Shown here piece after piece: positions 1-16,738 of a stretch of DNA of 64,000 nucleotides (within the stretch, counting starts at the first letter, position 1; each line of letters begins with the position of its first letter). This DNA comes from Escherichia coli (GTDB lineage Bacteria; Pseudomonadota; Gammaproteobacteria; Enterobacterales; Enterobacteriaceae), in NCBI RefSeq assembly GCF_022846255.1, contig NZ_AP025682.1; one strand, 5' to 3'. The translations under genes were made by a program, and so were the position numbers. A model generated the notes under the pieces. It saw only the letters and a program-made list of their open reading frames with translations. It was not told the origin of the DNA and ran no database searches.

Positions 1-1
1 C

Positions 2-775
2 CGGACCAGCAACGAGCTGCGTAAACAGGGCGTTTTTATCTCCGGCAGTGGTGTCCGTTCTGCCTAGTTACGCCATAACCTTGAGAATTTCAAAAAACGT
101 CTGAAAGCACTGGAAGAAAAAGTAGCCCGTGATGGCATTGAGCTAACTGACAGCCAGATCGCAGCACTGGAGCGTAAAGCCAGTGATGACGAGGTCTGTG
201 GCGAAATCGAAACGGCTCATCCGGGATATCTGGGTTCGCAGGACACGTTCTATGTAGGCAACCTGAAAGGTGTCGGGCGTATTTATCAGCAGACGTTCGT
301 TGATACGTACTCGAAAGTGGCTCACTGTAAGCTTTACGTCATCAAAACACCGATTACCGCGGCTGACTTACCGAATGATCGTGTACTGCCGTTTTATGCG
401 TCTCAGGGCCTGCCGATGCTGAGAATACTGACCGACAGAGGCACAGAGTACTGTGGCAAAGTAGAGCAGCATGATTATCAGCTTTATCTGGCAATAAACG
501 ATATAGAACACACGAAAACAAAGGCGATGTCCCCGCAGACCAACGGCATCTGCGAGCGGTTCCATAAAACAATCCTGAACGAATTTTATCAGGTAACGTT
601 CCGTAAAAACTGTACGGCGATCTTGATACATTACAGTCGGATCTTGATGAATGACTGGCTCACTATAATAATGAGCGAACCCATCAGGGAAAAATGTGCA
701 ATGGGCGGACGCCAATGGAAACGTTACTTGATGGAAAGCGCATCTGGGCCGAGAAAAATTTAAGCCAGATGTAAT
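2..775 (+). pseudogene. Decayed DDE (rve integrase-core) transposase, IS481-like; 5' end lies outside the window
   Basis: Frame 2 translation gives an integrase-core-like sequence (…TDRGTEYCGKVEQHDYQLYLAINDIEHTKTKAMSPQTNGICERFHKTILNEFYQ…). It is broken by an in-frame TAG at 65-67, a frameshift near the A-run at ~605-612, and an in-frame TGA near 655; the C-terminus (…NNERTHQGKMCNGRTPMETLLDGKRIWAEKNLSQM*) continues in another frame to the TAA at 773-775. Confidence 0.6.
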
Positions 776-882
776 CTGACAGATACCTGTATAAATAACC
801 GGTAACTGTCAGATCAGGTCTGAGCTAATACAGCTTATTCATGCAAGGCCAGTGAACATAACTGACCTTGTTAATATATTTA

Positions 883-2673
883 TTAAGTAAATAAAAACGC
901 CTCAACCTCTTTTAAAGTCTTTTCTAAAAAACGCAAAGATTCTCTGCAATCATCATCGCTCATTTGAGCTATTTTTTTTGCTAACGGGATCTTTCGTTTT
1001 TTGGGTATAAGATACTCAATCTTAATTGAGTAGTCTTTGTCTTTTAAATTATCAGAGAGTTTCATTTCTGATTGAATTAACTCATTAACTTTTTCTGGTG
1101 TAAGCATTTCATTTAAATTAGCTCTTCTTTCAAGATTATTTTCTTCTAACTCTTCTTTCCATATTGCAATAGGATAATTGGACTCTAAAACCCCTGGTAT
1201 TTTATAACCATCTTTTTTTGCACTGAGAACATCTTGCGTTGGTTTTAATGTAAAGCATTTAACTGATTTACCAATATCTTGAATATCACCAAGTTCTTTT
1301 TTGACATTTATACCATCTTTATCTGCATCTACAATGCCAACACATTTATATTTGTTTTGATGATGTTTATGGATATGATAATAAGCTTTTAACATGTCAC
1401 AAACATAGTTTGTTCCTGCGCCAAAATCTTTTGTAATTACCTCAATGTCATTCATCCTTTCTGGTATGAAAACTTGTATCGCCCTTTCAATTATAATTTT
1501 ATCGCTGGCTCCCTCTACGTACATTACAGCTTTTTCATCACCAAGTTTACCAACGGATTCAATATTTTCTATACGAGATTTCACCTCATCAATATAGGGT
1601 GAAAGCAATTCCATAACCCCCATTCTGTCATCAAGCAGTGCATATTTATCATCACAAGAGGTTACATCAGTCAAGTCTTTCTCAATAAAAATGCAATTAA
1701 CAGATCTATCTTGTTTTGAGAGATTATAAAATGCAGGAGAATGTGTAGTTATAAATAATTGTGATACAGGATCTGGCACGAAAGTTTTAAACTGTATGGC
1801 AAGCTTGATTGATGACGTTAACTCAAGGTTATTTTCTGGCTCTTCATAGCCCCATATAAATGTATACGGTGGGTTGCCTCTTGCCTGTAGTGTTTTTGTT
1901 TTCTCAGCAATATATTTTAATATTAATGGAATGTGGCGAGCTTTGATTCCATCACCTCGTTCATTAAGAGATATTTTCATTTCATTTAGAAAGTCTAAAT
2001 TCCCAAATAAATTACTTAGATCTCTAGGAAGCGAAAGTTCAGAGTTAAAACCAAGAGATTCGTTAATCTCTTTTGTTAACTCATGAAGATTCTCAGCTAT
2101 ACTCTTCTCAAATGCTTTGCTTGAATCGCTAAAATTCTCATTGAACACAGCATTTACAACAAAATATATTTCACTCCTTAATTTTGCAATATACCCTTTA
2201 TCCTTAATTGCAGGAATATAAACATATTTTACATTATTAAGTAACTGTCTTATATTTGAACGAGCTGGAATTTCTTGCTTTTCTGTTCGTCGACCGCCTC
2301 TAGGGCCACTATATGATTTAATCCCAAGTATACTCTCATCATAAAATCCACCTGAGCGCCATGACTTCGTCCATTCAATTAAATTTCCATTTGTTGCATG
2401 ATAACTAGATGGAATATCAAGAAGTAATTTAATTTTTATCTCTCTAGCTTTTTTAGAATATTTTTTTGCCGCATAAATATTATAGTCAGTTGAAAAATCA
2501 AAAGATTCTCCTGGATTTGTTTGCGAATTAAAGAAGAGGTTTAAAGCTCTTAATATATTTGATTTACCAGCATCATTATTACCAACAATAATCTGTAGTC
2601 GCGCACTATCAATAACTATTTTCTGAATTGATCGAAAATTCGTGATTTCAATTCTTCGAATACTAACCGGCAT
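883..2673 (-). CDS. OLD-family ABC-ATPase/Toprim nuclease (class-1 OLD-like, GajA-like or fused PARIS AriAB-like), ~596 aa
   Basis: N-terminal Walker A (IVGNNDAGKSNILRALNLFF), Walker B/D-loop-like FIWGYEEPENNLE and H-loop-like QLFITTHSPAF; C-terminal Toprim-like motifs (MYVEGASDKIIIE, GIVDADKDG). Start placed at the ATG at 2673 (M37 of the track ORF 883..2781), which has a GAGG Shine-Dalgarno ~8 nt upstream. GC about 30%, well below the core genome. Confidence 0.75.
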   Translation of the reverse strand: MPVSIRRIEITNFRSIQKIVIDSARLQIIVGNNDAGKSNILRALNLFFNSQTNPGESFDFSTDYNIYAAKKYSKKAREIKIKLLLDIPSSYHATNGNLIEWTKSWRSGGFYDESILGIKSYSGPRGGRRTEKQEIPARSNIRQLLNNVKYVYIPAIKDKGYIAKLRSEIYFVVNAVFNENFSDSSKAFEKSIAENLHELTKEINESLGFNSELSLPRDLSNLFGNLDFLNEMKISLNERGDGIKARHIPLILKYIAEKTKTLQARGNPPYTFIWGYEEPENNLELTSSIKLAIQFKTFVPDPVSQLFITTHSPAFYNLSKQDRSVNCIFIEKDLTDVTSCDDKYALLDDRMGVMELLSPYIDEVKSRIENIESVGKLGDEKAVMYVEGASDKIIIERAIQVFIPERMNDIEVITKDFGAGTNYVCDMLKAYYHIHKHHQNKYKCVGIVDADKDGINVKKELGDIQDIGKSVKCFTLKPTQDVLSAKKDGYKIPGVLESNYPIAIWKEELEENNLERRANLNEMLTPEKVNELIQSEMKLSDNLKDKDYSIKIEYLIPKKRKIPLAKKIAQMSDDDCRESLRFLEKTLKEVEAFLFT

Positions 2674-2807
2674 AAAAACCTCATCGTAACGCCTGTTTAT
2701 ATTTATAGCTGATAAAATAACACAACCACAATGAAAGTGAATAGTGAATTGCCACAAGTTTAACAAACACCTCAAGATCATTTAAAATGACTTAAAGAGA
2801 GGCTCCC

Positions 2808-3125
2808 ATGAGCAGTAAGCGTTAACTCGCAGAGTTTAAAATTAAAGCAGTCAAACAGATTGTTGAACATGGTTATTCTGTTTCCCTGCGTTGCAACACA
2901 TCTGTGTAAGTTCACTCTTTAGTGTACAAGCCATGAGCGTCAGTCGTTCCTGAAATAACACGACCATCGCGGTAACTGCCACTATAATGCGGTTACAGAA
3001 AGCTTTTTCCAGTTACTGAAGTCTGAACGGATAAAGAAAAAATCTTCAGCCCCCTGATCTCATCGTGTTATTCACAACAATCCACTCCTGAAATGGCCGT
3101 GAATACAATTTATCAAGGCTAGTGG
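2808..3125 (+). mobile_element. IS3-family transposase orfA remnant with multiple stops
   Basis: Translation MSSKR*LAEFKIKAVKQIVEHGYSVSLRCNTSV* resembles the HTH N-terminus of IS3-family OrfA proteins but is interrupted by stops; no ORF of 60 aa or more survives. Confidence 0.35.
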
Positions 3126-3257
3126 TCACTTTTCCTATTATGATTAGTGAAAACATAAAGTGCGGAAACGAATGAAAATGCACTGTATTATTTAAAGACA
3201 TCATCCAACGCCCTTACCGTGGTATACACTCAGGCACCAGATGCTGTTTTACAGGGT

Positions 3258-3989
3258 TCACCTGCCATCCAGAAGACGCCCCGGCCCACGACTGCAACCA
3301 TAATTACGTTGCCCGGAACCGTCATGCTGCTTCGTCTCATACTTCACGAGATAACTGGCTCTGTTCTGGGCTTTCTGCATCGCTTCCACATCACCACGCT
3401 TGATCCAGAGAACAGCGGCTTCACCCGGCTTTTTGTCTGAAGCCTTCCTGGTTTCAGAACATCCACCCGACAAAGGCGTATCATCGGAAGAAGGGCGAGC
3501 ATCAGATGATGTCGGTTTACGGAAAGGCGTCCGCCTGGAAAAATGAACCAGTCCATTACCCTGCCAGGGCTCAAGATGCAGAGCGCTACACCATGCCAGT
3601 TGTATCAGCGTCGCCAGCGAAGAAGGAACGGTGAAATCCCCTGGCGAGCACCAGGTATCTTTGTTGAGCAGTAATATCACGTGATAATGTTTCCTGCCTT
3701 TTTCCTTGCCAAACTCCCGACACCAGAAATAACGCAGAGTGGTTGCACGCACACGCTTGTTGGCACGTCGTTTATGTCGCTGGTAAGCCTGAATTTTTGC
3801 TTTCAGGGATGCAAAAAAACGAGAAATCACCGCTGAATCTAAATCGGTATCCATGATGGTGGCAGGCATATACTCAGGGAAACGTAAATCCACCCGGATT
3901 AACGAGACGGCACGGTGTTGCGCCAGGGCACTGTTGAGAATACTTTCAAAACGGGATAACCAGTAAGCATTGTGTATTGGTTGATTCAT
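3258..3989 (-). CDS. YagK/YfjJ-family (inovirus Gp2-like) prophage protein
   Basis: 243-aa ORF whose N-terminal half (MNQPIHNAYWLSRFESILNSALAQHRAVSLIRVDLRFPEYMP…RYFWCREFGKEKGRKHYHVILLLNKDTW…) resembles YagK/YfjJ proteins of CP4-type cryptic prophages; GGAG Shine-Dalgarno ~9 nt upstream of the ATG at 3989. The Arg/Ser/Gly-rich C-terminal tail may be read-through. Confidence 0.6.
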   Translation of the reverse strand: MNQPIHNAYWLSRFESILNSALAQHRAVSLIRVDLRFPEYMPATIMDTDLDSAVISRFFASLKAKIQAYQRHKRRANKRVRATTLRYFWCREFGKEKGRKHYHVILLLNKDTWCSPGDFTVPSSLATLIQLAWCSALHLEPWQGNGLVHFSRRTPFRKPTSSDARPSSDDTPLSGGCSETRKASDKKPGEAAVLWIKRGDVEAMQKAQNRASYLVKYETKQHDGSGQRNYGCSRGPGRLLDGR

Positions 3990-5503
3990 GATGAGAGATC
4001 TCCGTTGATTTGGATTGACTTCACATCATTAATCACCGCGGTAAAACTTTACGGCATCCGGCATTGAGCAATGCTACAACTCTCTGATTAAGAGTGATTG
4101 AAACGGAACAAACCATCCCGGAACGAAAAGATAATTCTACACGCAGGGTAAAAACACTCAAGAACAGCGAATGGATTTAAAAACGACATGGACAACGAGA
4201 AAAGTCAGAAGGGAAAAGGATCCACAGAACATTCGAACAAAACACCAGAAACGCAACCAGAACGCTTCCTGGTAATGCAAATCAACAACAACCCCAAAAC
4301 CTACAGCTTAATCACACAACTCAATCACGGATGCGAATGACACGTTTAAAACCTGTTTACAGATAAACCCCGCCACAAGAACAAAAATCACCAACATCAG
4401 AATCGATTTTCTCATCCTGAAAAAGTTACGTTTCACTACGCACCATAAAAACGATTAACCATCGATAACGTAAACCTTATCTGAATCAAAAACACCAAAA
4501 CCGTTCATCACACTTTCGCAATGCAAGAAGAAACCTCATGACAAAAAGAATGACCTTACACGGAAAAGAAAACGTCAGGAATCGTTAATGCCTCAATCTG
4601 ATTGTTATCAAAACATCCAGAAAGTCGTTTAACAGAATCGTCGTAAGCACATCGAAAAAAACGTCAGATTACTTCAGGAAAGTTCGGGTTGATTTAGCGT
4701 AAAGATACTTTTCTCATGCTAACGTCGAAACTCGAAATCTCAGGAAAGGTTAAACGTAACATCAGTAAAATCGAATAGCAGATTGATTGCTGAAGCAGAA
4801 AGGTTTTACAGCAGCATTAAACTGATTTAGTTAACGTAAAGATTTACTAAACTGGATGTGTATAGCAATGCTTAACGAAAACACTTGTAGAAGTGTTTAT
4901 GAAAATACGTGTATAAGACTTACTGAAATGCTTAGTAAAAATACTTAGTAAAATACGTGTATATAGTATCATACCGACATTAGCAACATTCTCAGACACT
5001 CATGCAGACTGAATGTTGATTACCCGTTTTCACATCAGGCATGGTTCTTTACTGACCAAAAAACAAACTGGTTTACTCTTGAATTATTTTCTCTACCTCA
5101 GAAAACATGGTCTCAGGAATCTGCTATGGTTTCATAGTTTCTGTTGTTCCTTTCATAAAAGTTATAAGTCATTGTCATAATCATACGATAATCACTTTAT
5201 GTTAGTTTTTACTGTCACACGCTACTGACTTTTTCAGTCATTGCCAGAAAGGGGCTCTTTTTACTTCCATTTCACCACTCAACAAATGCAAAACTTGTCC
5301 AGTAAAGCGGACCACCTCTTGCTCACAAGCAACGAATCATCTCCAGGAACAGCCCTCAAACATTGCAGAAACAAAAACAACAAAACCCTCATTATCACTG
5401 ATGTTCGGAAAATTTCCCGGAACAAAAAAAACGAAATCAAAATGAGACTCATTATCATGGATGTAGTCAAAAAGACGTTATGGTGGCTTTCAGTTAAATG
5501 GTA
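3990..5503. other. ORF-free, strongly A-rich / T-poor tract (+ strand) with short direct and inverted repeats
   Basis: No credible ORF of 60 aa or more in any frame over ~1.5 kb; extreme A-over-T skew on the + strand; imperfect tandem units around 4860-4975 (repeated aatacgtgtata and gcttaNNNaaaa motifs) and an inverted repeat aacacttgtagaagtgtt. Confidence 0.4.
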
Positions 5504-6634
5504 CTATTTCTCATAAATCCACTTAACTTTTTTTACTGATTCATCCCAGATAACCACTTTATCAGTAAAAAATGAATTATATAGATTGACGAGTTTTTCT
5601 GTTTCAGTTATTCCCAATGTATTATGTATCAGTTGTAGATATGCTTTTATCCAGATTTCTTTACCCTCCCTCCACTTATCTATAAAACTTTCCAGCTTAC
5701 TTAATCGTTGATTTATAAAAAACGAATCAATATCATGAAAAAGCTCAACAAGAAAACAGCACGAGACAATCTCAACAAAAAACAAATTCTCCTTAAAAGT
5801 ATTATAAAACCTTATCAACACATAACGAAAAACACCTCCTGTTAATCTTTCCTGTTCATAAAACAACAAACCAAAAACAGGAGGAAATCTTTTAACCACA
5901 CCACTTTTAATCCAGTAAGGATGATGATTAGTCTTTACTGGCAGTGAATAAAAGAACAATTCGGTTTCTCTTTTCCCACCACAAACAGACAAAACTGTCT
6001 TATAAAGACTTTTTGAATCATTATGTCCTGATACCCCAGACGAATTAGCAGAGTATTTTCTTTTTACTTTTTGCCTTAATGGAGCTGGAAGAATAATAAA
6101 ACGGGATGGCAGATAACAATCGCTTTCAGAAGACCGGCATTCGCACACATGAAGATTTATATTTACATCCGGACAATTCAAAAACCACACAGAATAATTA
6201 TCGCACCGTTTGCAATATGAAACCCATGAATAAATTGCATAAAGTTCAGAAAGCGCATCTAACTCTGCTTTTGAATTAAATGTGATACCGTTTCTTCGAA
6301 TTCTCGTTTCCAGCGTTCTCCATGCCGGGGTTTTCAGTATCTCACGAACTTTTTTATTAAGTTCAGCCAGAGATGGTCCCTGCTCCTGTTTATGTTTCGT
6401 CCTGCTGTTAATGATTTCTCTTTCTTTTACTAATTTCCTCTTTCTTTTTGGTCCTTCTACCTTTCTTGGCAATGCTTCATTTAATCTGTGAACAGGATTT
6501 TGCTCTCTTCTTTTTTTGAGCTCACAAAACCTCTCATAATGTTTTCTGCACAGTCTTTTCTCCACTGCCATTTTTACTGAGAAAACCTGATTGTTACAAT
6601 TTTTTCTGACACATTTGTTTTTACGTCCGGTCAT
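5504..6634 (-). CDS. Hypothetical protein, 376 aa, basic Cys-rich N-terminus (possible zinc-binding/nucleic-acid-binding); function unknown
   Basis: Long ORF at about 35% GC. N-terminus MTGRKNKCVRKNCNN…CRKHYERFCELKKRR and a second Cys cluster YCKRCDNYSVWFLNCPDVNINLHVCECRSSESDC. No family recognised by eye. Confidence 0.6.
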   Translation of the reverse strand: MTGRKNKCVRKNCNNQVFSVKMAVEKRLCRKHYERFCELKKRREQNPVHRLNEALPRKVEGPKRKRKLVKEREIINSRTKHKQEQGPSLAELNKKVREILKTPAWRTLETRIRRNGITFNSKAELDALSELYAIYSWVSYCKRCDNYSVWFLNCPDVNINLHVCECRSSESDCYLPSRFIILPAPLRQKVKRKYSANSSGVSGHNDSKSLYKTVLSVCGGKRETELFFYSLPVKTNHHPYWIKSGVVKRFPPVFGLLFYEQERLTGGVFRYVLIRFYNTFKENLFFVEIVSCCFLVELFHDIDSFFINQRLSKLESFIDKWREGKEIWIKAYLQLIHNTLGITETEKLVNLYNSFFTDKVVIWDESVKKVKWIYEK

Positions 6635-6818
6635 CCTCTCATCTCCTGAAACAGCAGTATGTCATTAGTTCCCGTTCTGAAAAACTGACGCCATACTCCA
6701 TTACACTTTAACAATAATGTCCGTAATTCAGACATTCCATCATTTTTCACGCCCATATTACCTGAATGATAAACCGGATTAGTGTGATCCGGTTCAGTGA
6801 AATCAACAGGATACCGGT

Positions 6819-7703
6819 ATGTCATTCAGCCATTCTTCCCTCTCCGCACAAGTGAAATCATATCTGACGTTTCTTCCTGAAGAAATTCGTCAGAAAATTC
6901 TTGAACATCTCCACAGCGTTATTCATTACGAACCCGTGATTGGCATTATGGGTAAATCCGGCACCGGCAAAAGTAGCCTGTGTAATGCTATTTTTCAGTC
7001 CCATATCTGTGCCACGCATCCCCTGAACGGCTGCACCCGCCAGGCTCATCGTCTTACCCTGCAGATCGGTGAACGCAGAATGACGCTGGTCGATCTGCCC
7101 GGCATTGGAGAGACGCCGCAACATGATCAGGAATACCGGGCGCTTTACCGTCAGTTACTGCCGGAAGTGGATTTGATTATCTGGATCCTGCGGGCAGATG
7201 AACGCGCATATGCCGCCGACATTACCATGCATCAGTTTTTACTGAATGAAGGCGCAGATCCCTCGCGTTTTCTGTTTGTTCTCAGCCATGCCGATCGCGT
7301 GTTTCCTGCTGAAGAATGGAATGCCACAGAAAAATGCCCGTCCCGTCAGCAGGCGCTCTCACTGGCGACGGTGACAGCCCGGGTGGCAACCCTGTTCCCT
7401 TCATCATTTCCGGTACTCTCCGTTGCTGCACCTGTCGGCTGGAACCTTCCGGCGTTTGTGTCGCTGATGATCCACGCACTGCCACCACAGGCAACCAGCG
7501 CGGTGTATTCACATATCCGGGGAGAAAACCGCTCTGAACAGGCCCAGAAACACGCACAACAGACTTTTGGTGAAACCATCGGGAAAAGTTTTGACGTCGC
7601 CGTTGCCCGTTTCAGTTTTCCGGCCTGGATGTTACAGCTTCTGCGTAAAGCCCGGGACCGCATTATCCACCTGCTGATCACACTGTGGGAGCGTCTGTTC
7701 TGA
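6819..7703 (+). CDS. YfjP/YkfA/YeeP-family GTPase (CP4-type prophage)
   Basis: P-loop GIMGKSGTGKSSLCNAIF and G3-like DLPGIGE motifs; 294 aa. Confidence 0.8.
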   Translation: MSFSHSSLSAQVKSYLTFLPEEIRQKILEHLHSVIHYEPVIGIMGKSGTGKSSLCNAIFQSHICATHPLNGCTRQAHRLTLQIGERRMTLVDLPGIGETPQHDQEYRALYRQLLPEVDLIIWILRADERAYAADITMHQFLLNEGADPSRFLFVLSHADRVFPAEEWNATEKCPSRQQALSLATVTARVATLFPSSFPVLSVAAPVGWNLPAFVSLMIHALPPQATSAVYSHIRGENRSEQAQKHAQQTFGETIGKSFDVAVARFSFPAWMLQLLRKARDRIIHLLITLWERLF

Positions 7704-7905: not shown

Positions 7906-8586
7906 ATGTCTGATAATCGTTCCCGGCATGATCGCCTGGCGGTTCGCTTATCACTCATTATCAGCCGACTGATGGCCGGAGAATCTCTGTCACTAAAAAC
8001 ACTGTCAGATGAATTTGGCGTTACAGAACGTACTTTACAGCGCGATTTTCATCAGCGTCTGGTTCACCTGGATTTAGAGTACAGAAATGGCAGGTACAGC
8101 CTCAGACGACAGAGCAGCCCAGGTGCGATCCCTGAAATGCTTTCTTTTATACAGAATACCGGGATCGCACGGATACTTCCGCTCCGGAACGGACGACTGA
8201 TAACCTGTCTTACCGACAACCAGGAGCCCTCTCCCTGCCTTATCTGGCTACCGGCGCCGGATATCACTGCAACGTTCCCCGAGTGTTTCTCGCAACTCAT
8301 CCTGGCAATAAGACAGTGTATCCACATCTCTCTGATGACTGAGCGATGGTATCCGTCACTGGAGCCCTGCCGGCTCATTTATTACAGCGGTAGCTGGTAT
8401 CTGATCGCGTTACAGAAGGGAAAACTGCAGGTCTTTCCTCTGGCAGATATCAAATCAGTCAGCCTGACATCAGAACGGTTTGAACGGAGAGGCCACATCC
8501 ACAGTCTGGTCGCTGAAGAGCGTTTTATCTCCGCCCTGCCACATTTCTCTTTCATCCATAAACTTATCAACACCTTTAACCTGTGA
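7906..8586 (+). CDS. YfjR-like transcriptional regulator (HTH + WYL-like domain)
   Basis: 226-aa ORF with an N-terminal HTH-like segment (LKTLSDEFGVTERTLQRDFHQ); sits in the conserved position after the GTPase gene. Confidence 0.65.
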   Translation: MSDNRSRHDRLAVRLSLIISRLMAGESLSLKTLSDEFGVTERTLQRDFHQRLVHLDLEYRNGRYSLRRQSSPGAIPEMLSFIQNTGIARILPLRNGRLITCLTDNQEPSPCLIWLPAPDITATFPECFSQLILAIRQCIHISLMTERWYPSLEPCRLIYYSGSWYLIALQKGKLQVFPLADIKSVSLTSERFERRGHIHSLVAEERFISALPHFSFIHKLINTFNL

Positions 8587-9739: not shown

Positions 9740-10558
9740 ATGCAATTAGCCAGTCGTTTTGGTCATGTAAATCAGATCCGTCGGGAGCGCCCACTGACAC
9801 GCGAAGAACTGATGTACCACGTCCCGAGTATTTTTGGAGAAGACCGGCACACCTCCCGCAGTGAACGGTATGCGTACATTCCCACCATCACCGTCCTGGA
9901 AAATCTGCAGCGGGAAGGCTTTCAGCCGTTCTTCGCCTGCCAGACCCGTGTGCGCGACCAGAGCCGCCGGGAATATACCAAACATATGCTGCGTCTGCGG
10001 CGGGCCGGACAGATAACCGGTCAGCATGTGCCTGAAATTATTCTGCTCAACTCCCATGACGGTTCATCCAGCTACCAGATGTTACCCGGATATTTTCGTG
10101 CCATCTGCACCAATGGCTTGGTCTGCGGTCAGTCGCTGGGAGAAGTCCGGGTGCCCCACCGGGGAAACGTGGTGGACAGGGTGATTGAAGGTGCTTACGA
10201 AGTGGTGGGCGTGTTTGACCGGATTGAGGAAAAGCGTGATGCCATGCAGTCGCTGGTCCTGCCGCCACCGGCACGCCAGGCGCTGGCACAGGCGGCGCTG
10301 ACTTACCGTTATGGTGATGAACATCAGCCCGTCACCACTACCGACATTCTGACGCCACGACGCCGGGAGGATTACGGTAAGGACCTGTGGAGTGCTTATC
10401 AGACCATCCAGGAAAATATGCTGAAAGGCGGGATTTCCGGTCGCAGTGCCAGAGGAAAACGTATCCATACCCGGGCCATTCGCAGCATCGATACCGACAT
10501 TAAGCTCAACCGGGCGTTGTGGGTGATGGCAGAAACGCTGCTGGAGAGCATGCGCTGA
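9740..10558 (+). CDS. DUF932 family protein (YfjQ/YafZ-like)
   Basis: 272-aa ORF; MQLASRFGHVNQIRRERPLTREELMYHVPSIFGEDRHTSRSERYAYIPTITVLENLQREGFQPFFACQT… is typical of YafZ/YfjQ. Confidence 0.8.
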   Translation: MQLASRFGHVNQIRRERPLTREELMYHVPSIFGEDRHTSRSERYAYIPTITVLENLQREGFQPFFACQTRVRDQSRREYTKHMLRLRRAGQITGQHVPEIILLNSHDGSSSYQMLPGYFRAICTNGLVCGQSLGEVRVPHRGNVVDRVIEGAYEVVGVFDRIEEKRDAMQSLVLPPPARQALAQAALTYRYGDEHQPVTTTDILTPRRREDYGKDLWSAYQTIQENMLKGGISGRSARGKRIHTRAIRSIDTDIKLNRALWVMAETLLESMR

Positions 10559-10649: not shown

Positions 10650-11135
10650 ATGACAACCTTTTCGCATAGCTCCACCACACCTTCTGTTTCCGTAACTACT
10701 GCATCAGGGAATAACCAGTCTCAACTGGTTGCCACTCCCGTCCCTGATGAACAGCGCATCAGCTTCTGGCCGCAGCACTTTGGCCTCATTCCACAGTGGG
10801 TGACCCTGGAGCCCCGTGTCTTCGGCTGGATGGACCGTCTGTGTGAAGACTACTGCGGGGGTATCTGGAATCTGTACACCCTGAACAACGGTGGCGCATT
10901 TATAGCACCTGAACCGGATGAAGATGATGGAGAAACCTGGATACTGTTCAATGCCATGAACGGTAACCGCGCTGAAATGAGCCCGGAAGCTGCCGGCATT
11001 GCCGCCTGTCTGATGGCGTACAGCCATCATGCCTGTCGTACGGAGTGTTATGCCATGACGGTCCACTATTACCGGCTGCGGGATTACGCCCTGCAACATC
11101 CGGAATGCAGCGCCATTATGCGCATCATTGACTGA
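10650..11135 (+). CDS. Antirestriction protein (ArdB/KlcA-like; YfjX/YeeS-neighbour family)
   Basis: 161-aa ORF with the conserved …WPQHFGLIPQWVTLEPRVFGWMDRLCEDYCGGIWNLYTLNNGGAFIAPE… pattern. Confidence 0.8.
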   Translation: MTTFSHSSTTPSVSVTTASGNNQSQLVATPVPDEQRISFWPQHFGLIPQWVTLEPRVFGWMDRLCEDYCGGIWNLYTLNNGGAFIAPEPDEDDGETWILFNAMNGNRAEMSPEAAGIAACLMAYSHHACRTECYAMTVHYYRLRDYALQHPECSAIMRIID

Positions 11136-11149
11136 AAGGGGCCGGAACA

Positions 11150-11626
11150 ATGCAACAGATTTCCTTTCTGCCCGGAGAAATGACGCCCGGTGAGCGCAGC
11201 CTCATTCAGCGGGCCCTGAAAACCCTGGACCGCCATCTTCATGAACCCGGCGTGGCCTTCACCTCCACGCATGCGGCACGGGAATGGCTGATTCTGAACA
11301 TGGCGGGACTGGAGCGTGAAGAATTCCGGGTGCTGTATCTGAACAACCAGAATCAGCTGATTGCCGGTGAAACCCTCTTCACCGGCACCATCAACCGCAC
11401 GGAAGTCCATCCCCGGGAAGTGATTAAACGCGCCCTGTATCACAATGCCGCTGCCGTGGTGCTGGCACACAATCACCCGTCCGGTGAAGTCACACCCAGT
11501 AAGGCAGACCGGCTTATCACCGAACGTCTGGTACAGGCACTGGCCCTGGTGGATATCCGGGTGCCGGACCATCTGATAGTCGGTGGCAACCAGGTTTTCT
11601 CCTTTGCGGAACACGGTCTGCTTTAA
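11150..11626 (+). CDS. RadC-like JAB-domain protein (YeeS/YfjY/YkfG family)
   Basis: JAMM motif HNHPSGEVTPSKAD in a 158-aa ORF. Confidence 0.85.
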   Translation: MQQISFLPGEMTPGERSLIQRALKTLDRHLHEPGVAFTSTHAAREWLILNMAGLEREEFRVLYLNNQNQLIAGETLFTGTINRTEVHPREVIKRALYHNAAAVVLAHNHPSGEVTPSKADRLITERLVQALALVDIRVPDHLIVGGNQVFSFAEHGLL

Positions 11627-11989: not shown

Positions 11990-12358
11990 GTGTCAGACAC
12001 ATTCTCCGGGACAACGCATCCCGATGACAATCACGACCGCCCCTGGTGGGGGCTGCCCTGTACCGTGACACCTTGTTTTGGCGCCCGTCTGGTGCAGGAG
12101 GGTAACCGGTTGCATTACCTTGCCGACCGCGCCGATATCAGAGGCCGGTTCAGCGACGCGGATGCGTACCATCTGGACCAGGCCTTTCCGCTGCTGATGA
12201 AACAACTGGAGCTCATGCTCACCAGCGGTGAACTGAATCCCCGCCATCAGCATACCGTCACGCTGTATGCAAAAGGGCTGACCTGCGAAGCCGACACCCT
12301 CGGCAGTTGTGGCTACGTTTATATGGCTGTTTATCCGACGCCCGAAACGAAAAAGTAA
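11990..12358 (+). CDS. Type IV antitoxin of the CbeA/YeeU family
   Basis: 122-aa ORF immediately upstream of a CbtA-like gene; …WGLPCTVTPCFGARLVQEGNRLHYLADRA… matches the YeeU/CbeA pattern. Confidence 0.85.
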   Translation: MSDTFSGTTHPDDNHDRPWWGLPCTVTPCFGARLVQEGNRLHYLADRADIRGRFSDADAYHLDQAFPLLMKQLELMLTSGELNPRHQHTVTLYAKGLTCEADTLGSCGYVYMAVYPTPETKK

Positions 12359-12447
12359 ACCACCGGAATAATCGTCTGTTCCGGCCTGGTGCTTTCACCA
12401 CGCCACTTTTCCATTTTTCATCTCTGCATATCAGGAAAATCTTCAGT

Positions 12448-12825
12448 ATGAAAACATTACCTGTATTACCCGGGCAGGCGGCCAGTTCACGCCCGTCTCC
12501 GGTTGAAATCTGGCAGACACTGCTCACCCGACTGCTGGACCAGCATTACGGCCTTACGCTGAATGACACACCGTTCGCTGATGAACGTGTGATTGAGCAG
12601 CATATTGAGACAGGCATTTCACTGTGCGATGCGGTGAACTTTCTCGTTGAAAAATACACACTGGTACGTACCGACCAGCCAGGATTCAGCGCCTGTACCC
12701 GTTCTCAGTTAATAAACAGTATTGATATCCTCCGGGCCCGCCGGGCAACCGGCCTGATGGCCCGCGACAATTACAGAACGGTAAATAACATTACCCTGGG
12801 TAAACATCCGGGGGCGAAACAATGA
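12448..12825 (+). CDS. Type IV toxin of the CbtA/YeeV family
   Basis: Start at M48 of the track ORF; MKTLPVLPGQAASSRPSPVEIWQTLLTRLLDQHYGLTLNDTPFADERVIEQHIETGISLCDAVNFLVEKYTLVRTDQPGF…. Confidence 0.85.
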   Translation: MKTLPVLPGQAASSRPSPVEIWQTLLTRLLDQHYGLTLNDTPFADERVIEQHIETGISLCDAVNFLVEKYTLVRTDQPGFSACTRSQLINSIDILRARRATGLMARDNYRTVNNITLGKHPGAKQ

Positions 12826-13608: not shown

Positions 13609-14451
13609 ATGTCTGAAATCACAGCCCCCCGTCCGGAAGTGGTCAACGGGCATACGGACGTTATCTGCTCAACCAGTATCCGCCACATTCTGGCTGTACG
13701 AAAGAGTACGCTGCTGCAAATCGACACACTTACCCGGCAACTGGCTGAAATCTCAGCAATGACAGAAAGCATTGGCGGTAAAACCGCACTGGACTGGGCG
13801 ATGAAACAGGATTTTCGCTGCGGCTGCTGGCTCATGGAGAAAACTGAAACGGCAATGAAAGCCATCACCCGAAACCTTGACCGTGAAATCTGGCGTGACC
13901 TGATGCAACGCTCCGGGATGCTGTCATTAATGGATGCGCAGACCCGTGATACATGGTACCGGTCACTGGAGTACAATAATTTTCCGGAAATCAGTGAAGC
14001 GAACATTCTGAGCACATTTGAACAACTGCACCAGAATAAGGATGAGGTGTTTGAGCGAGGGGTGATCAACGTCTTCAGGGGACTGAGCTGGGATTACAAA
14101 ACCAACTCACCCTGTAAATTTGGCAGTAAAATTATCGTCAACAACCTGGTGAGGTGGGACCGGTGGGGGTTTCATCTTATCACCGGGCAACAGACTGACC
14201 GACTCGTCGACCTGGAAAGAATGCTACATCTGTTCAGCGGCAAACCGATCCCCGACAACCGGGAAAACATCACTATTCGTCTGGATGGTCACATCCAGTC
14301 CGTTCAGGGTAAAGAGCGCTATGAAGACGAGATGTTCATCATTAAATACTTTAAGAAGGGATCTGCACACATCACTTTCAAAAGGCTGGAACTGATTGAC
14401 AGAATTAACGATATAATAGCCAGGTACTTTCCTTCTGTGCTCTCAGCCTGA
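13609..14451 (+). CDS. DUF4942-family protein (terminal gene of CP4-like elements)
   Basis: 280-aa ORF at the island end, just inside the tRNA-derived repeat. Confidence 0.7.
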   Translation: MSEITAPRPEVVNGHTDVICSTSIRHILAVRKSTLLQIDTLTRQLAEISAMTESIGGKTALDWAMKQDFRCGCWLMEKTETAMKAITRNLDREIWRDLMQRSGMLSLMDAQTRDTWYRSLEYNNFPEISEANILSTFEQLHQNKDEVFERGVINVFRGLSWDYKTNSPCKFGSKIIVNNLVRWDRWGFHLITGQQTDRLVDLERMLHLFSGKPIPDNRENITIRLDGHIQSVQGKERYEDEMFIIKYFKKGSAHITFKRLELIDRINDIIARYFPSVLSA

Positions 14452-15199: not shown

Positions 15200-16738
15200 A
15201 TGCAACAACCTGTAGTTCGCGTTGGCGAATGGCTTGTTACTCCGTCCATAAACCAAATTAGCCGCAATGGGCGTCAACTTACCCTTGAGCCGAGATTAAT
15301 CGATCTTCTGGTTTTCTTTGCTCAACACAGTGGCGAAGTACTTAGCAGGGATGAACTTATCGATAATGTCTGGAAGAGAAGTATTGTCACCAATCACGTT
15401 GTGACGCAGAGTATCTCAGAACTACGTAAGTCATTAAAAGATAATGATGAAGATAGTCCTGTCTATATCGCTACTGTACCAAAGCGCGGCTATAAATTAA
15501 TGGTGCCGGTTATCTGGTACAGCGAAGAAGAGGGAGAGGAAATAATGCTATCTTCGCCTCCCCCTATACCAGAGGCGGTTCCTGCCACAGATTCTCCCTC
15601 CCACAGTCTTAACATTCAAAACACCACAACGCCACCTGAACAATCCCCAGTTAAAAGCAAACGATTCACTACCTTTTGGGTATGGTTTTTTTTCCTGTTG
15701 TCGTTAGGTATCTGTGTCGCACTGGTAGCGTTTTCAAGTCTTGAAACACGTCTTCCTATGAGTAAATCGCGCATTTTGCTCAATCCACGCGATATTGACA
15801 TTAATATGGTTAATAAGAGTTGTAACAGCTGGAGTTCTCCGTATCAGCTCTCTTACGCGATAGGCGTGGGTGATTTGGTGGCGACATCACTTAACACCTT
15901 CTCCACCTTTATGGTGCATGACAAAATCAACTACAACATTGATGAACCGAGCAGTTCCGGTAAAACATTATCTATTGCGTTTGTTAATCAGCGCCAATAC
16001 CGTGCTCAACAATGCTTTATGTCGGTAAAATTGGTAGACAATGCAGATGGTTCAACCATGCTGGATAAACGTTATGTCATCACTAACGGTAATCAGCTGG
16101 CGATTCAAAATGATTTGCTCCAGAGTTTATCAAAAGCGTTAAACCAACCGTGGCCACAACGAATGCAGGAGATGCTCCAGCAAATTTTGCCGCATCGTGG
16201 TGCGTTATTAACTAATTTTTATCAGGCACATGATTATTTACTGCATGGTGATGATAAATCATTGGATCGTGCCAGTGAATTATTAGGTGAGATTGTTCAA
16301 TCATCCCCAGAATTTACCTACGCGAGAGCAGAAAAAGCATTAGTTGATATCGTGCGCCATTCTCAACATCCTTTAGACGAAAAACAATTAGCAGCACTGA
16401 ACACAGAAATAGATAACATTGTTACACTACCGGAATTGAACAACTTGTCCATTATATATCAAATAAAAGCGGTCAGTGCCCTGGTAAAAGGTAAAACAGA
16501 TGAGTCTTATCAGGCGATAAATACTGGCATTGATCTTGAAATGTCCTGGCTAAATTATGTGTTGCTTGGCAAGGTTTATGAAATGAAGGGGATGAACCGG
16601 GAAGCAGCTGATGCATATCTCACCGCCTTTAATTTACGCCCAGGGGCAAACACCCTTTACTGGATTGAAAATGGTATATTCCAGACTTCTGTTCCTTATG
16701 TTGTACCTTATCTCGACAAATTTCTCGCTTCAGAATAA
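15200..16738 (+). CDS. cadC: CadC, membrane-integrated ToxR-like activator of the cadBA operon
   Basis: 512 aa; N-terminal winged-helix segment (MQQPVVRVGEWLVTPSINQISRNGRQLTLEPRLIDLLVFFAQHSGEVLSRDELIDNVW), transmembrane segment and periplasmic sensor; upstream of cadBA. Confidence 0.95.
   Translation: MQQPVVRVGEWLVTPSINQISRNGRQLTLEPRLIDLLVFFAQHSGEVLSRDELIDNVWKRSIVTNHVVTQSISELRKSLKDNDEDSPVYIATVPKRGYKLMVPVIWYSEEEGEEIMLSSPPPIPEAVPATDSPSHSLNIQNTTTPPEQSPVKSKRFTTFWVWFFFLLSLGICVALVAFSSLETRLPMSKSRILLNPRDIDINMVNKSCNSWSSPYQLSYAIGVGDLVATSLNTFSTFMVHDKINYNIDEPSSSGKTLSIAFVNQRQYRAQQCFMSVKLVDNADGSTMLDKRYVITNGNQLAIQNDLLQSLSKALNQPWPQRMQEMLQQILPHRGALLTNFYQAHDYLLHGDDKSLDRASELLGEIVQSSPEFTYARAEKALVDIVRHSQHPLDEKQLAALNTEIDNIVTLPELNNLSIIYQIKAVSALVKGKTDESYQAINTGIDLEMSWLNYVLLGKVYEMKGMNREAADAYLTAFNLRPGANTLYWIENGIFQTSVPYVVPYLDKFLASE

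Follow-up and report, generated by a model that had tools for sequence, protein, structure and literature searches.

The 64,000-nucleotide stretch of Escherichia coli chromosome analysed here (the window; NCBI RefSeq assembly GCF_022846255.1, contig NZ_AP025682.1) carries, near its left end and on the minus strand, a gene for an OLD-family protein in which an ABC-type ATPase precedes a Toprim nuclease domain. The first 5 kb of the window are 99.6% identical to several complete genomes. An earlier inspection of the letters without database searches (the sequence-only reading) had placed this gene at 883-2673 and had given it a GC content of about 30% and a recent horizontal origin. RefSeq places WP_001521654.1, labelled 'ATP-dependent nuclease', at exactly the same coordinates in E. 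coli genomes that are 99.6-99.9% identical, and the 596-amino-acid (aa) product is 100% identical over its full 596 aa to database protein P0001. We took the ATG at 2673 as the start, because it is preceded by GAGG at 2682-2679, homologues in a 50-member alignment all begin within about three residues of M1, and the RefSeq coordinates agree. A longer open reading frame (ORF) of 632 aa from 2781 was rejected, as homologues begin at the methionine at 2673, with GAGG ahead of it. The measured GC content was 0.32, with 0.22 at third codon positions, against 0.50 for the whole window. The gene was AT-rich in all gammaproteobacterial hosts checked (GC 0.32-0.36 versus 0.52-0.61 in the flanks; 0.34-0.36 versus 0.60-0.61 in Serratia and Aeromonas), and in E. 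coli it lies in islands at three chromosomal sites. The GC content of alphaproteobacterial members equals that of their hosts. The gene is real, intact and horizontally acquired, and we conclude with high confidence that it encodes an intact, solo OLD-family ATPase-Toprim nuclease. The gene and the features along it are as follows:

835..882, minus strand: 3' tail conserved with the gene; blastn alignments to the Serratia and second E. coli alleles (L002, L016) end 42-48 nt past the stop codon
883..2673, minus strand: coding sequence of the OLD-family ATPase-Toprim nuclease, 596 aa, WP_001521654.1; stop codon at 883-885
886..1188, minus strand: residues 496-596, the helical domain at the C-terminus; helical throughout in a model whose predicted local distance difference test (pLDDT) score is 94.8
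991-993, 1159-1161 and 1183-1185, minus strand: K561 (putative catalytic lysine), W505 and E497 (putative metal-B ligand), all invariant
1189..1539, minus strand: Toprim core, residues about 379-495; E387 and D391 at 1501-1515, D449-x-D451 at 1321-1329
1735..1749, minus strand: H-loop T-T310-H311-S312-P313, invariant; aligns with 'STHSP' of the Thermus scotoductus OLD protein (TsOLD), including H310 (PMC7049728)
1822..1860, minus strand: Walker B and D-loop F-I-W-G-Y-E277-E278-P-E280-N-N-L-E284; E277, E278, P279, E280, N281 and E284 invariant
1888..2199, minus strand: helical insertion in the ATPase head, residues about 159-262; AlphaFold2 helices 159-261 at pLDDT 54-67, with the AAA_15 match split around the insertion
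2560..2583, minus strand: Walker A (P-loop) G31-N-N-D-A-G-K37-S38; G31, N33, D34, G36, K37 and S38 invariant in 50 of 50 homologues
2674..2748, minus strand: 5' leader; in blastn against the Serratia allele and the second E. coli allele, identity ends 70-75 nt upstream of the ATG
2679-2682, minus strand: Shine-Dalgarno GAGG in the 5' leader, read from the sequence
2702-2707 and 2726-2731, minus strand: promoter-like hexamers TATAAA and TTGTGG with an 18-nt spacer, read by eye; a consensus promoter scan did not return them

The N-terminal part matches Pfam AAA_15, split into residues 5-83 and 181-315, as well as SMC_N and AAA_23. The order of domains is an ABC/SMC-type ATPase, then the Toprim domain, then a helical domain of about 100 aa. 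All conservation counts given here come from an alignment of 50 homologues at 30-87% identity. In it, K37, E277/E278, E284, H311, E387, G388, D391, D449, E497, W505 and K561 were invariant, and D451 was kept in 48 of the 50. The Toprim motifs are VEGASD at residues 386-391 and DAD at 449-451, both invariant or nearly so. An ABC ATPase at the N-terminus and Toprim-like C-terminal motifs are what the sequence-only reading had described, and the Walker and Toprim residues whose absence it had named as grounds for doubt are all in place. That hundreds of divergent homologues keep the catalytic positions indicates that the enzymatic function is under purifying selection.

The conserved positions match, one-to-one in order and spacing, residues K34/E276/H283/H310/E377/D381/D431/D433/E480 of TsOLD (PMC7049728). 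They also match E400/E404/D455/D457/E508/K562 of the Burkholderia pseudomallei OLD protein BpOLD (PMC6755086) and E374/D378/D460/D462/E515/K562 of retron Eco2 (PMC12405507). Judged by this order and spacing, E497 and K561 would be the counterparts of the metal-B glutamate E508 and the lysine K562 of BpOLD. With hmmsearch, the E277-E278 region aligned with I-E276-E-P-E of TsOLD, in which E276A abolishes ATPase activity (PMC7049728). The helical insertion is closed by the invariant signature-like motif R239-G240-D241-G242 (RGDGIK at 1942-1959) and occupies the place of the dimerisation domain of the Thermus OLD protein and GajA (TsOLD layout, PMC7049728). By analogy it probably mediates dimerisation.

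The AlphaFold2 model of the full-length protein had a pLDDT of 83.7. Foldseek returned full-length alignments to GajA (4e-19), TsOLD (1.6e-16) and the Eco8 OLD protein (8e-16), followed by Rad50, SMC and PtuA heads. When the family profile was compared with solved structures, the order was TsOLD (1.7e-16), GajA (about 1e-12) and Eco8 OLD (1.6e-5). No Toprim Pfam model was significant on the protein, Pfam, PADLOC and PHROGs gave no significant match to the C-terminal region, and the last 205 aa match no PADLOC model. A PDB sequence search with the C-terminal region returned the Toprim structure 1T6T alone (E = 0.06). As sequence methods could not place this region, residues 372-596 were modelled separately, with a pLDDT of 94.8 and a predicted template modelling score (pTM) of 0.90. 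Taken alone, the C-terminal region was structurally closest to the Toprim of retron Eco2, its best match, and to the C-terminal regions (CTRs) of class 2 OLD proteins. It aligned over 154 residues to the 204-residue BpOLD CTR, versus 125 to TsOLD. Since the Burkholderia Toprim core has 115 residues (PMC6755086), the alignment extends into the helical domain. In combination with the invariant E497, where the helical part begins, and the invariant K561 inside it, the alignment suggests a class-2-type catalytic module, in which a Toprim is joined by a helical domain that would give the metal-B glutamate and the lysine. The Toprim identification rests on the motifs and the predicted fold.

The gene is isolated in eleven independent contexts, across which no partner gene is conserved, be it a paired helicase, a reverse transcriptase or AriB. 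No neighbour is shared among the loci in Serratia (87% identity), Aeromonas (70%), Enterobacter mori (57%) and Frateuria, Enterovibrio and Yoonia (41-43%), nor with a second E. coli allele (86% DNA identity) or the Sphingobium and Aminobacter plasmids (40%). By blastn, DNA similarity to the Serratia and second E. coli alleles is confined to window positions 835-2748. Similarity between genera therefore ends 70-75 bp 5' of the ATG and 42-48 bp past the stop codon, which makes the mobile unit a single gene, an AT-rich cassette of about 1.9 kb.

OLD proteins are assigned to classes by genomic context (PMC10568477, PMC7049728). The N-terminal ATPase residues, the C-terminal Toprim residues and the whole-protein fold similarity place the protein in the OLD family. 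By genomic context it is a class 1 OLD, as one option of the sequence-only reading had it, with intact catalytic residues and relatives that are solo in every context examined, and it carries a class-2-like catalytic module. The short C-terminus of the TsOLD type, a secondary mark of class 1, is not found here: the protein has 596 aa and a helical domain of about 100 aa.

TsOLD (class 1, PDB 6P74) was the best sequence match among solved structures (1.7e-16). It is likewise solo, and its Toprim comes after an ABC ATPase into which a dimerisation-type domain is inserted. The two proteins have in common the non-canonical Walker B glutamate in 'EEPE', the 'THSP' H-loop and the E/D/DxD/E acidic set at near-identical numbering, with the sequence similarity confined to the ATPase motifs. 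TsOLD has 525 aa and no helical domain at its C-terminus. It uses R487, whereas the family described here has no equivalent basic residue and instead keeps the invariant K561 in the helical domain. The D-loop residue is a glutamate (E284) here and a histidine in TsOLD. The CTRs of class 2 OLD proteins (PDB 6NK8 from B. pseudomallei, 6NJV from X. campestris) and Bacillus cereus GajA (8SM3) have a Toprim followed by a helical domain, as here. The class 2 hallmark, a UvrD-like partner, is absent from all contexts of this family, and the residue at +4 after the Toprim glutamate is an aspartate here, in TsOLD and in Eco2, whereas it is a glutamate in class 2. The RT-Toprim protein of retron Eco2 (Ec67; PDB 9I2F), where RT stands for reverse transcriptase, has the same seven-residue active-site pattern, in which position +4 is an aspartate and the helical part contributes a lysine (PMC12405507). 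There the Toprim is fused to the reverse transcriptase and regulated by multicopy single-stranded DNA, while here it is fused to an ABC ATPase with no RT or non-coding RNA nearby (no Rfam RNA within 1-7000, no RT annotated within about 15 kb). The Eco2 Toprim domain is an RNase, which makes an RNA substrate plausible here.

Among OLD proteins with a known phenotype, P2 Old, archetype of class 1, is also solo, of similar length (586 aa) and on a mobile element. The part homologous to it, residues 1-419, comprises the ATPase and the first Toprim motif (hhalign probability 97.8, E 1.2e-12). Identity is about 20%, and the C-terminal regions are not detectably alike past the EG motif (probability 1.5%). 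We rejected orthology to P2 Old on these comparisons; the PADLOC Old model covers residues 4-59 only. The trigger of P2 Old is linked to RecBCD. P2 Old cuts the anticodon stem of tRNA-Thr (PMC12445682). The best functional precedent is the Vibrio cholerae protein Vc OLD (class 1), which is bacterial, solo and carried by a mobile defence element. Vc OLD is a DNA nickase that acts by abortive infection, with Walker A, Walker B and the Toprim DxD required for defence (PMC12392090), and it is inhibited by ICP1 Oad1. Its published residues K48, D313 and D468/D470 imply a Walker B aspartate and a spacing other than K37/E277/D449/D451. Judged from these residues alone, Vc OLD probably belongs to another clade. 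E. coli YbjD (OldB; class 1, DUF2813) is also a solo OLD-type protein, and there is a weak DUF2813 Pfam match at the N-terminus here. YbjD is a core gene of host-like composition, whereas the gene described here is rare, AT-rich and accessory. Orthology to YbjD was rejected: only 87 N-terminal columns align, with a probability of 93.5. A retron effector (class 3, Eco8-type) was rejected as well, NF038234 reaching 39 bits against a cut-off of 250, with no RT and no Rfam RNA.

We tentatively propose, as a reading that is possible rather than probable, that these proteins form a distinct, unnamed OLD lineage that combines the solo organisation with a class 2/Eco2-type module in a one-gene abortive-infection cassette of about 1.9 kb that moves between Proteobacteria, and whose substrate could be RNA or tRNA in place of DNA. 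The subfamily is widespread and databases label its kind, while it is itself uncharacterised. In the searchable literature, no accession of the protein is mentioned.

From the architecture and the known relatives we infer an enzymatic activity, a substrate, a trigger and a defence phenotype as follows. The SMC/Rad50-like ABC head would bind and hydrolyse ATP through K37, E277/E278, E284 and H311 and serve as a sensor or switch. The helical insertion would dimerise the head, so that dimeric ATP binding and hydrolysis would gate the Toprim nuclease. The Toprim and helical domains would then cut nucleic acid by two-metal catalysis, with metal A held by E387, D449 and D451, metal B by D391 and E497, and the transition state stabilised by K561. 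A phage-derived cue may license the nuclease and lead to abortive infection, through nicking of DNA or disabling of RNA or tRNA. Analogy with GajA, Vc OLD and the class 1 and class 2 enzymes studied in vitro suggests DNA as the substrate, while analogy with P2 Old, AriB and the Eco2 Toprim suggests RNA or tRNA. In this mechanism the AT-rich cassette would land in cargo slots of islands, at prophage ends, in restriction-modification operons and on plasmids. As a whole, mechanism included, a solo OLD-family enzyme acting as a one-gene anti-phage defence is the account that we consider probable. The anti-phage role taken by itself we would call fairly likely. Anti-phage phenotypes are on record for the solo OLD proteins P2 Old (PMC12445682), Vc OLD (PMC12392090) and YbjD (PMC13261556).

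Three of the eleven contexts adjoin known defence systems. In Yoonia litorea (L012 4004-12363) the homologue sits within a type I restriction-modification operon, with hsdM on one side and hsdS/hsdR on the other. In E. coli Sx181-0-1 (L016 9001-12797) the 86%-identity allele sits at a prophage end, adjoining a PD-T4-3 GIY-YIG gene (2.4e-140). On plasmid pAM01 of Aminobacter sp. MSH1 (L019 2581-8862) a homologue of 40% identity comes right after a GajA+GajB pair and is followed by a RES-family toxin.

Further details were visible at these loci. The start and stop codons of the Yoonia homologue overlap the neighbouring genes. The Sx181-0-1 allele is also near the pinE invertase and tail-fibre genes, and the Enterobacter mori homologue is beside resolvase and tail-fibre genes. 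The pAM01 locus is a small defence island with two different OLD-family genes side by side.

We weighed these proposals against three other explanations, two of which had been raised by the sequence-only reading. That the gene is a class 2 Gabija GajA left as a non-functional remnant after insertion sequence (IS) activity removed GajB is extremely improbable, even though GajA was the best full-length Foldseek match, several PADLOC GajA models match, the C-terminal region has a class-2-type helical domain with a conserved lysine, and an IS481 pseudogene lies exactly at the expected place of gajB. Homologues at 40-87% identity all lack a downstream helicase, and they do so in unrelated contexts free of IS elements. 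No relative has a paired helicase, and the Aminobacter GajB pairs with a separate GajA of 140 bits. GajA hidden Markov models reached 55 bits at best and matched the ATPase part only, the longest alignment covering residues 5-405, and DNA conservation across genera ends 45 bp past the stop codon. The sequence-only reading had seen no adjacent helicase and had left open that one might lie left of position 1. There is none in the window, and none beyond the IS481 fragment in the two genomes with the same module, where the fragment is followed by another YagK-type gene, a hypothetical gene and a helix-turn-helix (HTH) gene in ST-131 (ST, sequence type) and by IS3, MalY and NhaC in strain B1. Very unlikely, too, is a fused PARIS system (AriA-AriB), which would be triggered by Ocr-like phage anti-restriction proteins and cleave tRNA-Lys. 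The AriA model was the top PADLOC match (2.8e-22, 78 bits), an ABC ATPase joined to a Toprim is the architecture of merged PARIS, and tRNA cleavage is established for AriB and P2 Old (PMC12409363, PMC12445682). The best AriA stretch, however, spans only residues 5-84, at the P-loop end, and the AriAB fusion model was not among the best 25 PADLOC matches. The family profile matched AriA in the PDB at E = 0.15 and did not match AriB, and the C-terminal region is not AriB-like, with a DUF4435 match in one of 34 members (6e-3).

A solo OLD enzyme in a role other than defence, such as DNA repair or processing, stabilisation of the element or competition between elements, or a gene that is silent, decaying cargo, is unlikely as an explanation, less so than a broken Gabija or a PARIS fusion. 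The observations that come next favour it or weigh against the defence reading. Because eight of the eleven contexts have no adjacent known defence gene, the association with defence islands is anecdotal rather than statistical. Apart from one partial match, the family is missing from 50,697 phage records, unlike P2 Old. The C-terminal region is recognised by no Toprim Pfam or PADLOC model, and its function is read from motifs and predicted fold. In E. coli the gene is rare (0.44% of complete genomes) and flanked by IS debris. Some lineages carry a truncated gene (on about 30 contigs) or, in several complete genomes, an upstream IS1; selection for retention is thus not universal, and the gene is dispensable. 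In E. coli, H-NS often keeps AT-rich DNA silent. Cran1, an archaeal OLD-family ATPase, has a non-defence role in the cell cycle (PMC12796447), and the Toprim domain of YbjD is dispensable for its phenotype (PMC13261556). The non-defence or cargo explanation is opposed by the retention of catalytic residues across hundreds of divergent homologues, by a patchy, horizontally transferred, AT-rich single-gene spread typical of defence cargo, and by the three contexts that directly adjoin defence systems. Moreover, an anti-phage phenotype is known for each bacterial solo OLD that has been characterised (PMC12392090, PMC12445682, PMC13261556).

Solo class 1 OLD proteins are the least understood branch of the family underlying Gabija, PARIS and some retrons, and P2 Old, Vc OLD and YbjD are the only ones with any phenotype. 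The gene agrees with its RefSeq label of ATP-dependent nuclease and is not a broken Gabija; it represents a large subfamily (368 clusters) that the PADLOC Old, GajA and PARIS models match only partially. The subfamily bears on a possible link between solo organisation and the lysine module of the helical domain, and on DNA versus tRNA cleavage. If the defence role is true, it adds a compact one-gene defence system. If the distinct-lineage proposal is true, the context-based class scheme is blurred, and the subfamily represents a defence gene that current PADLOC and Pfam models leave unclassified.

The family comprises 1,489 word-index matches and, at E < 1e-30, 368 representative clusters, nearly all of about 600 aa and aligning end to end. 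Among 5426 complete E. coli genomes the gene was present in 24, with at least 99.5% identity in 20 and about 86% in four. The module of IS481 pseudogene, OLD gene and YagK gene occurs in islands next to cadC (the window), at tRNA-Leu (strain B1) and between dsdA and yicL (ST-131). In the truncated allele of E. coli drafts (P0012/P0013), residues 1-524 are followed by 14 foreign residues (at about window position 1100), with loss of the helical domain and K561. IS1 was found in the upstream intergenic region of the OLD gene in seven complete genomes, and within the interval 2749-3200 in strains B1, EC15 and 167. A hybrid protein of 596 aa (P0050; L020 1-2078) joins the N-terminus of a KAP-family P-loop NTPase to OLD residues of about 340-596, and bases 1021-2078 of its contig are 100% identical to the 3' half of the OLD gene plus the IS481 flank. 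P0050 occurs once, on a draft contig of 2 kb, and its junction occurs in no complete genome. It is probably an assembly chimera, a real swap of the sensor domain being the alternative.

The DNA around the OLD gene contains the following features:

1..774, plus strand: IS481-family transposase pseudogene, 3' part with the rve core, continuing past the left edge of the window; its longest ORF is 317-763
2749..3200, no strand assigned: linker DNA that separates the cassette from the island backbone; in E. coli almost only together with the OLD gene
3258..3989, minus strand: YagK/YfjJ-type gene ('inovirus Gp2 family' in RefSeq in several genomes); first gene of the island backbone and true upstream neighbour
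5504-6634, minus strand: AT-rich ORF of 376 aa, GC 0.34, annotated hypothetical, conserved in the island backbone
6819-7703: YeeP-like GTPase, CP4-type island backbone
7906-8586: HTH regulator, CP4-type island backbone
9740-10558: DUF932, CP4-type island backbone
10650-11135: antirestriction protein, CP4-type island backbone
11150-11626: RadC, CP4-type island backbone
11990-12825: YeeU/CbtA toxin-antitoxin pair, CP4-type island backbone
13609-14451: DUF4942, CP4-type island backbone
15200-16738: cadC, core gene, abutting the island at about 15.2 kb

The decayed rve transposase that the sequence-only reading saw downstream is the IS481-family pseudogene. RefSeq describes it as 'IS481 family transposase; frameshifted; internal stop', and NF033577 matches its ORF at 2e-24 (86.6 bits). 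The IS3-like remnant that the same reading saw upstream was not recovered: positions 2674-3257 are unannotated intergenic DNA followed by the YagK/YfjJ gene, and a weak 25.6-bit IS3 match came only from the IS481 fragment on the opposite side. Scans for repeats, terminators and promoters around the gene returned nothing above chance except an inverted repeat at 766-822, where the IS481 pseudogene ends and before the OLD gene's 3' end is reached. Its 25-nt arms are 80% complementary and 7 nt apart. The repeat may represent either the terminal structure of an IS or a terminator that works in both directions.

The 376-aa ORF at 5504-6634 had no PADLOC or NCBIfam match. There is no tRNA gene anywhere in the window, and an integration-site tRNA must therefore lie left of position 1. 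The island backbone is common to 836 genomes, with backbone-type matches beginning at about 3200, while the linker 2749-3200 is complete in 20 genomes only. Window positions 2749-3257 were compared with L014 7861-10050 and L015 22088-22785. In strain MINF_1D the same backbone lacks the OLD gene, acyltransferase and H-NS genes fill the slot, and a dGTPase-family gene lies further left; given this different content, the position to the left of the YagK/YfjJ gene is a slot for variable cargo.

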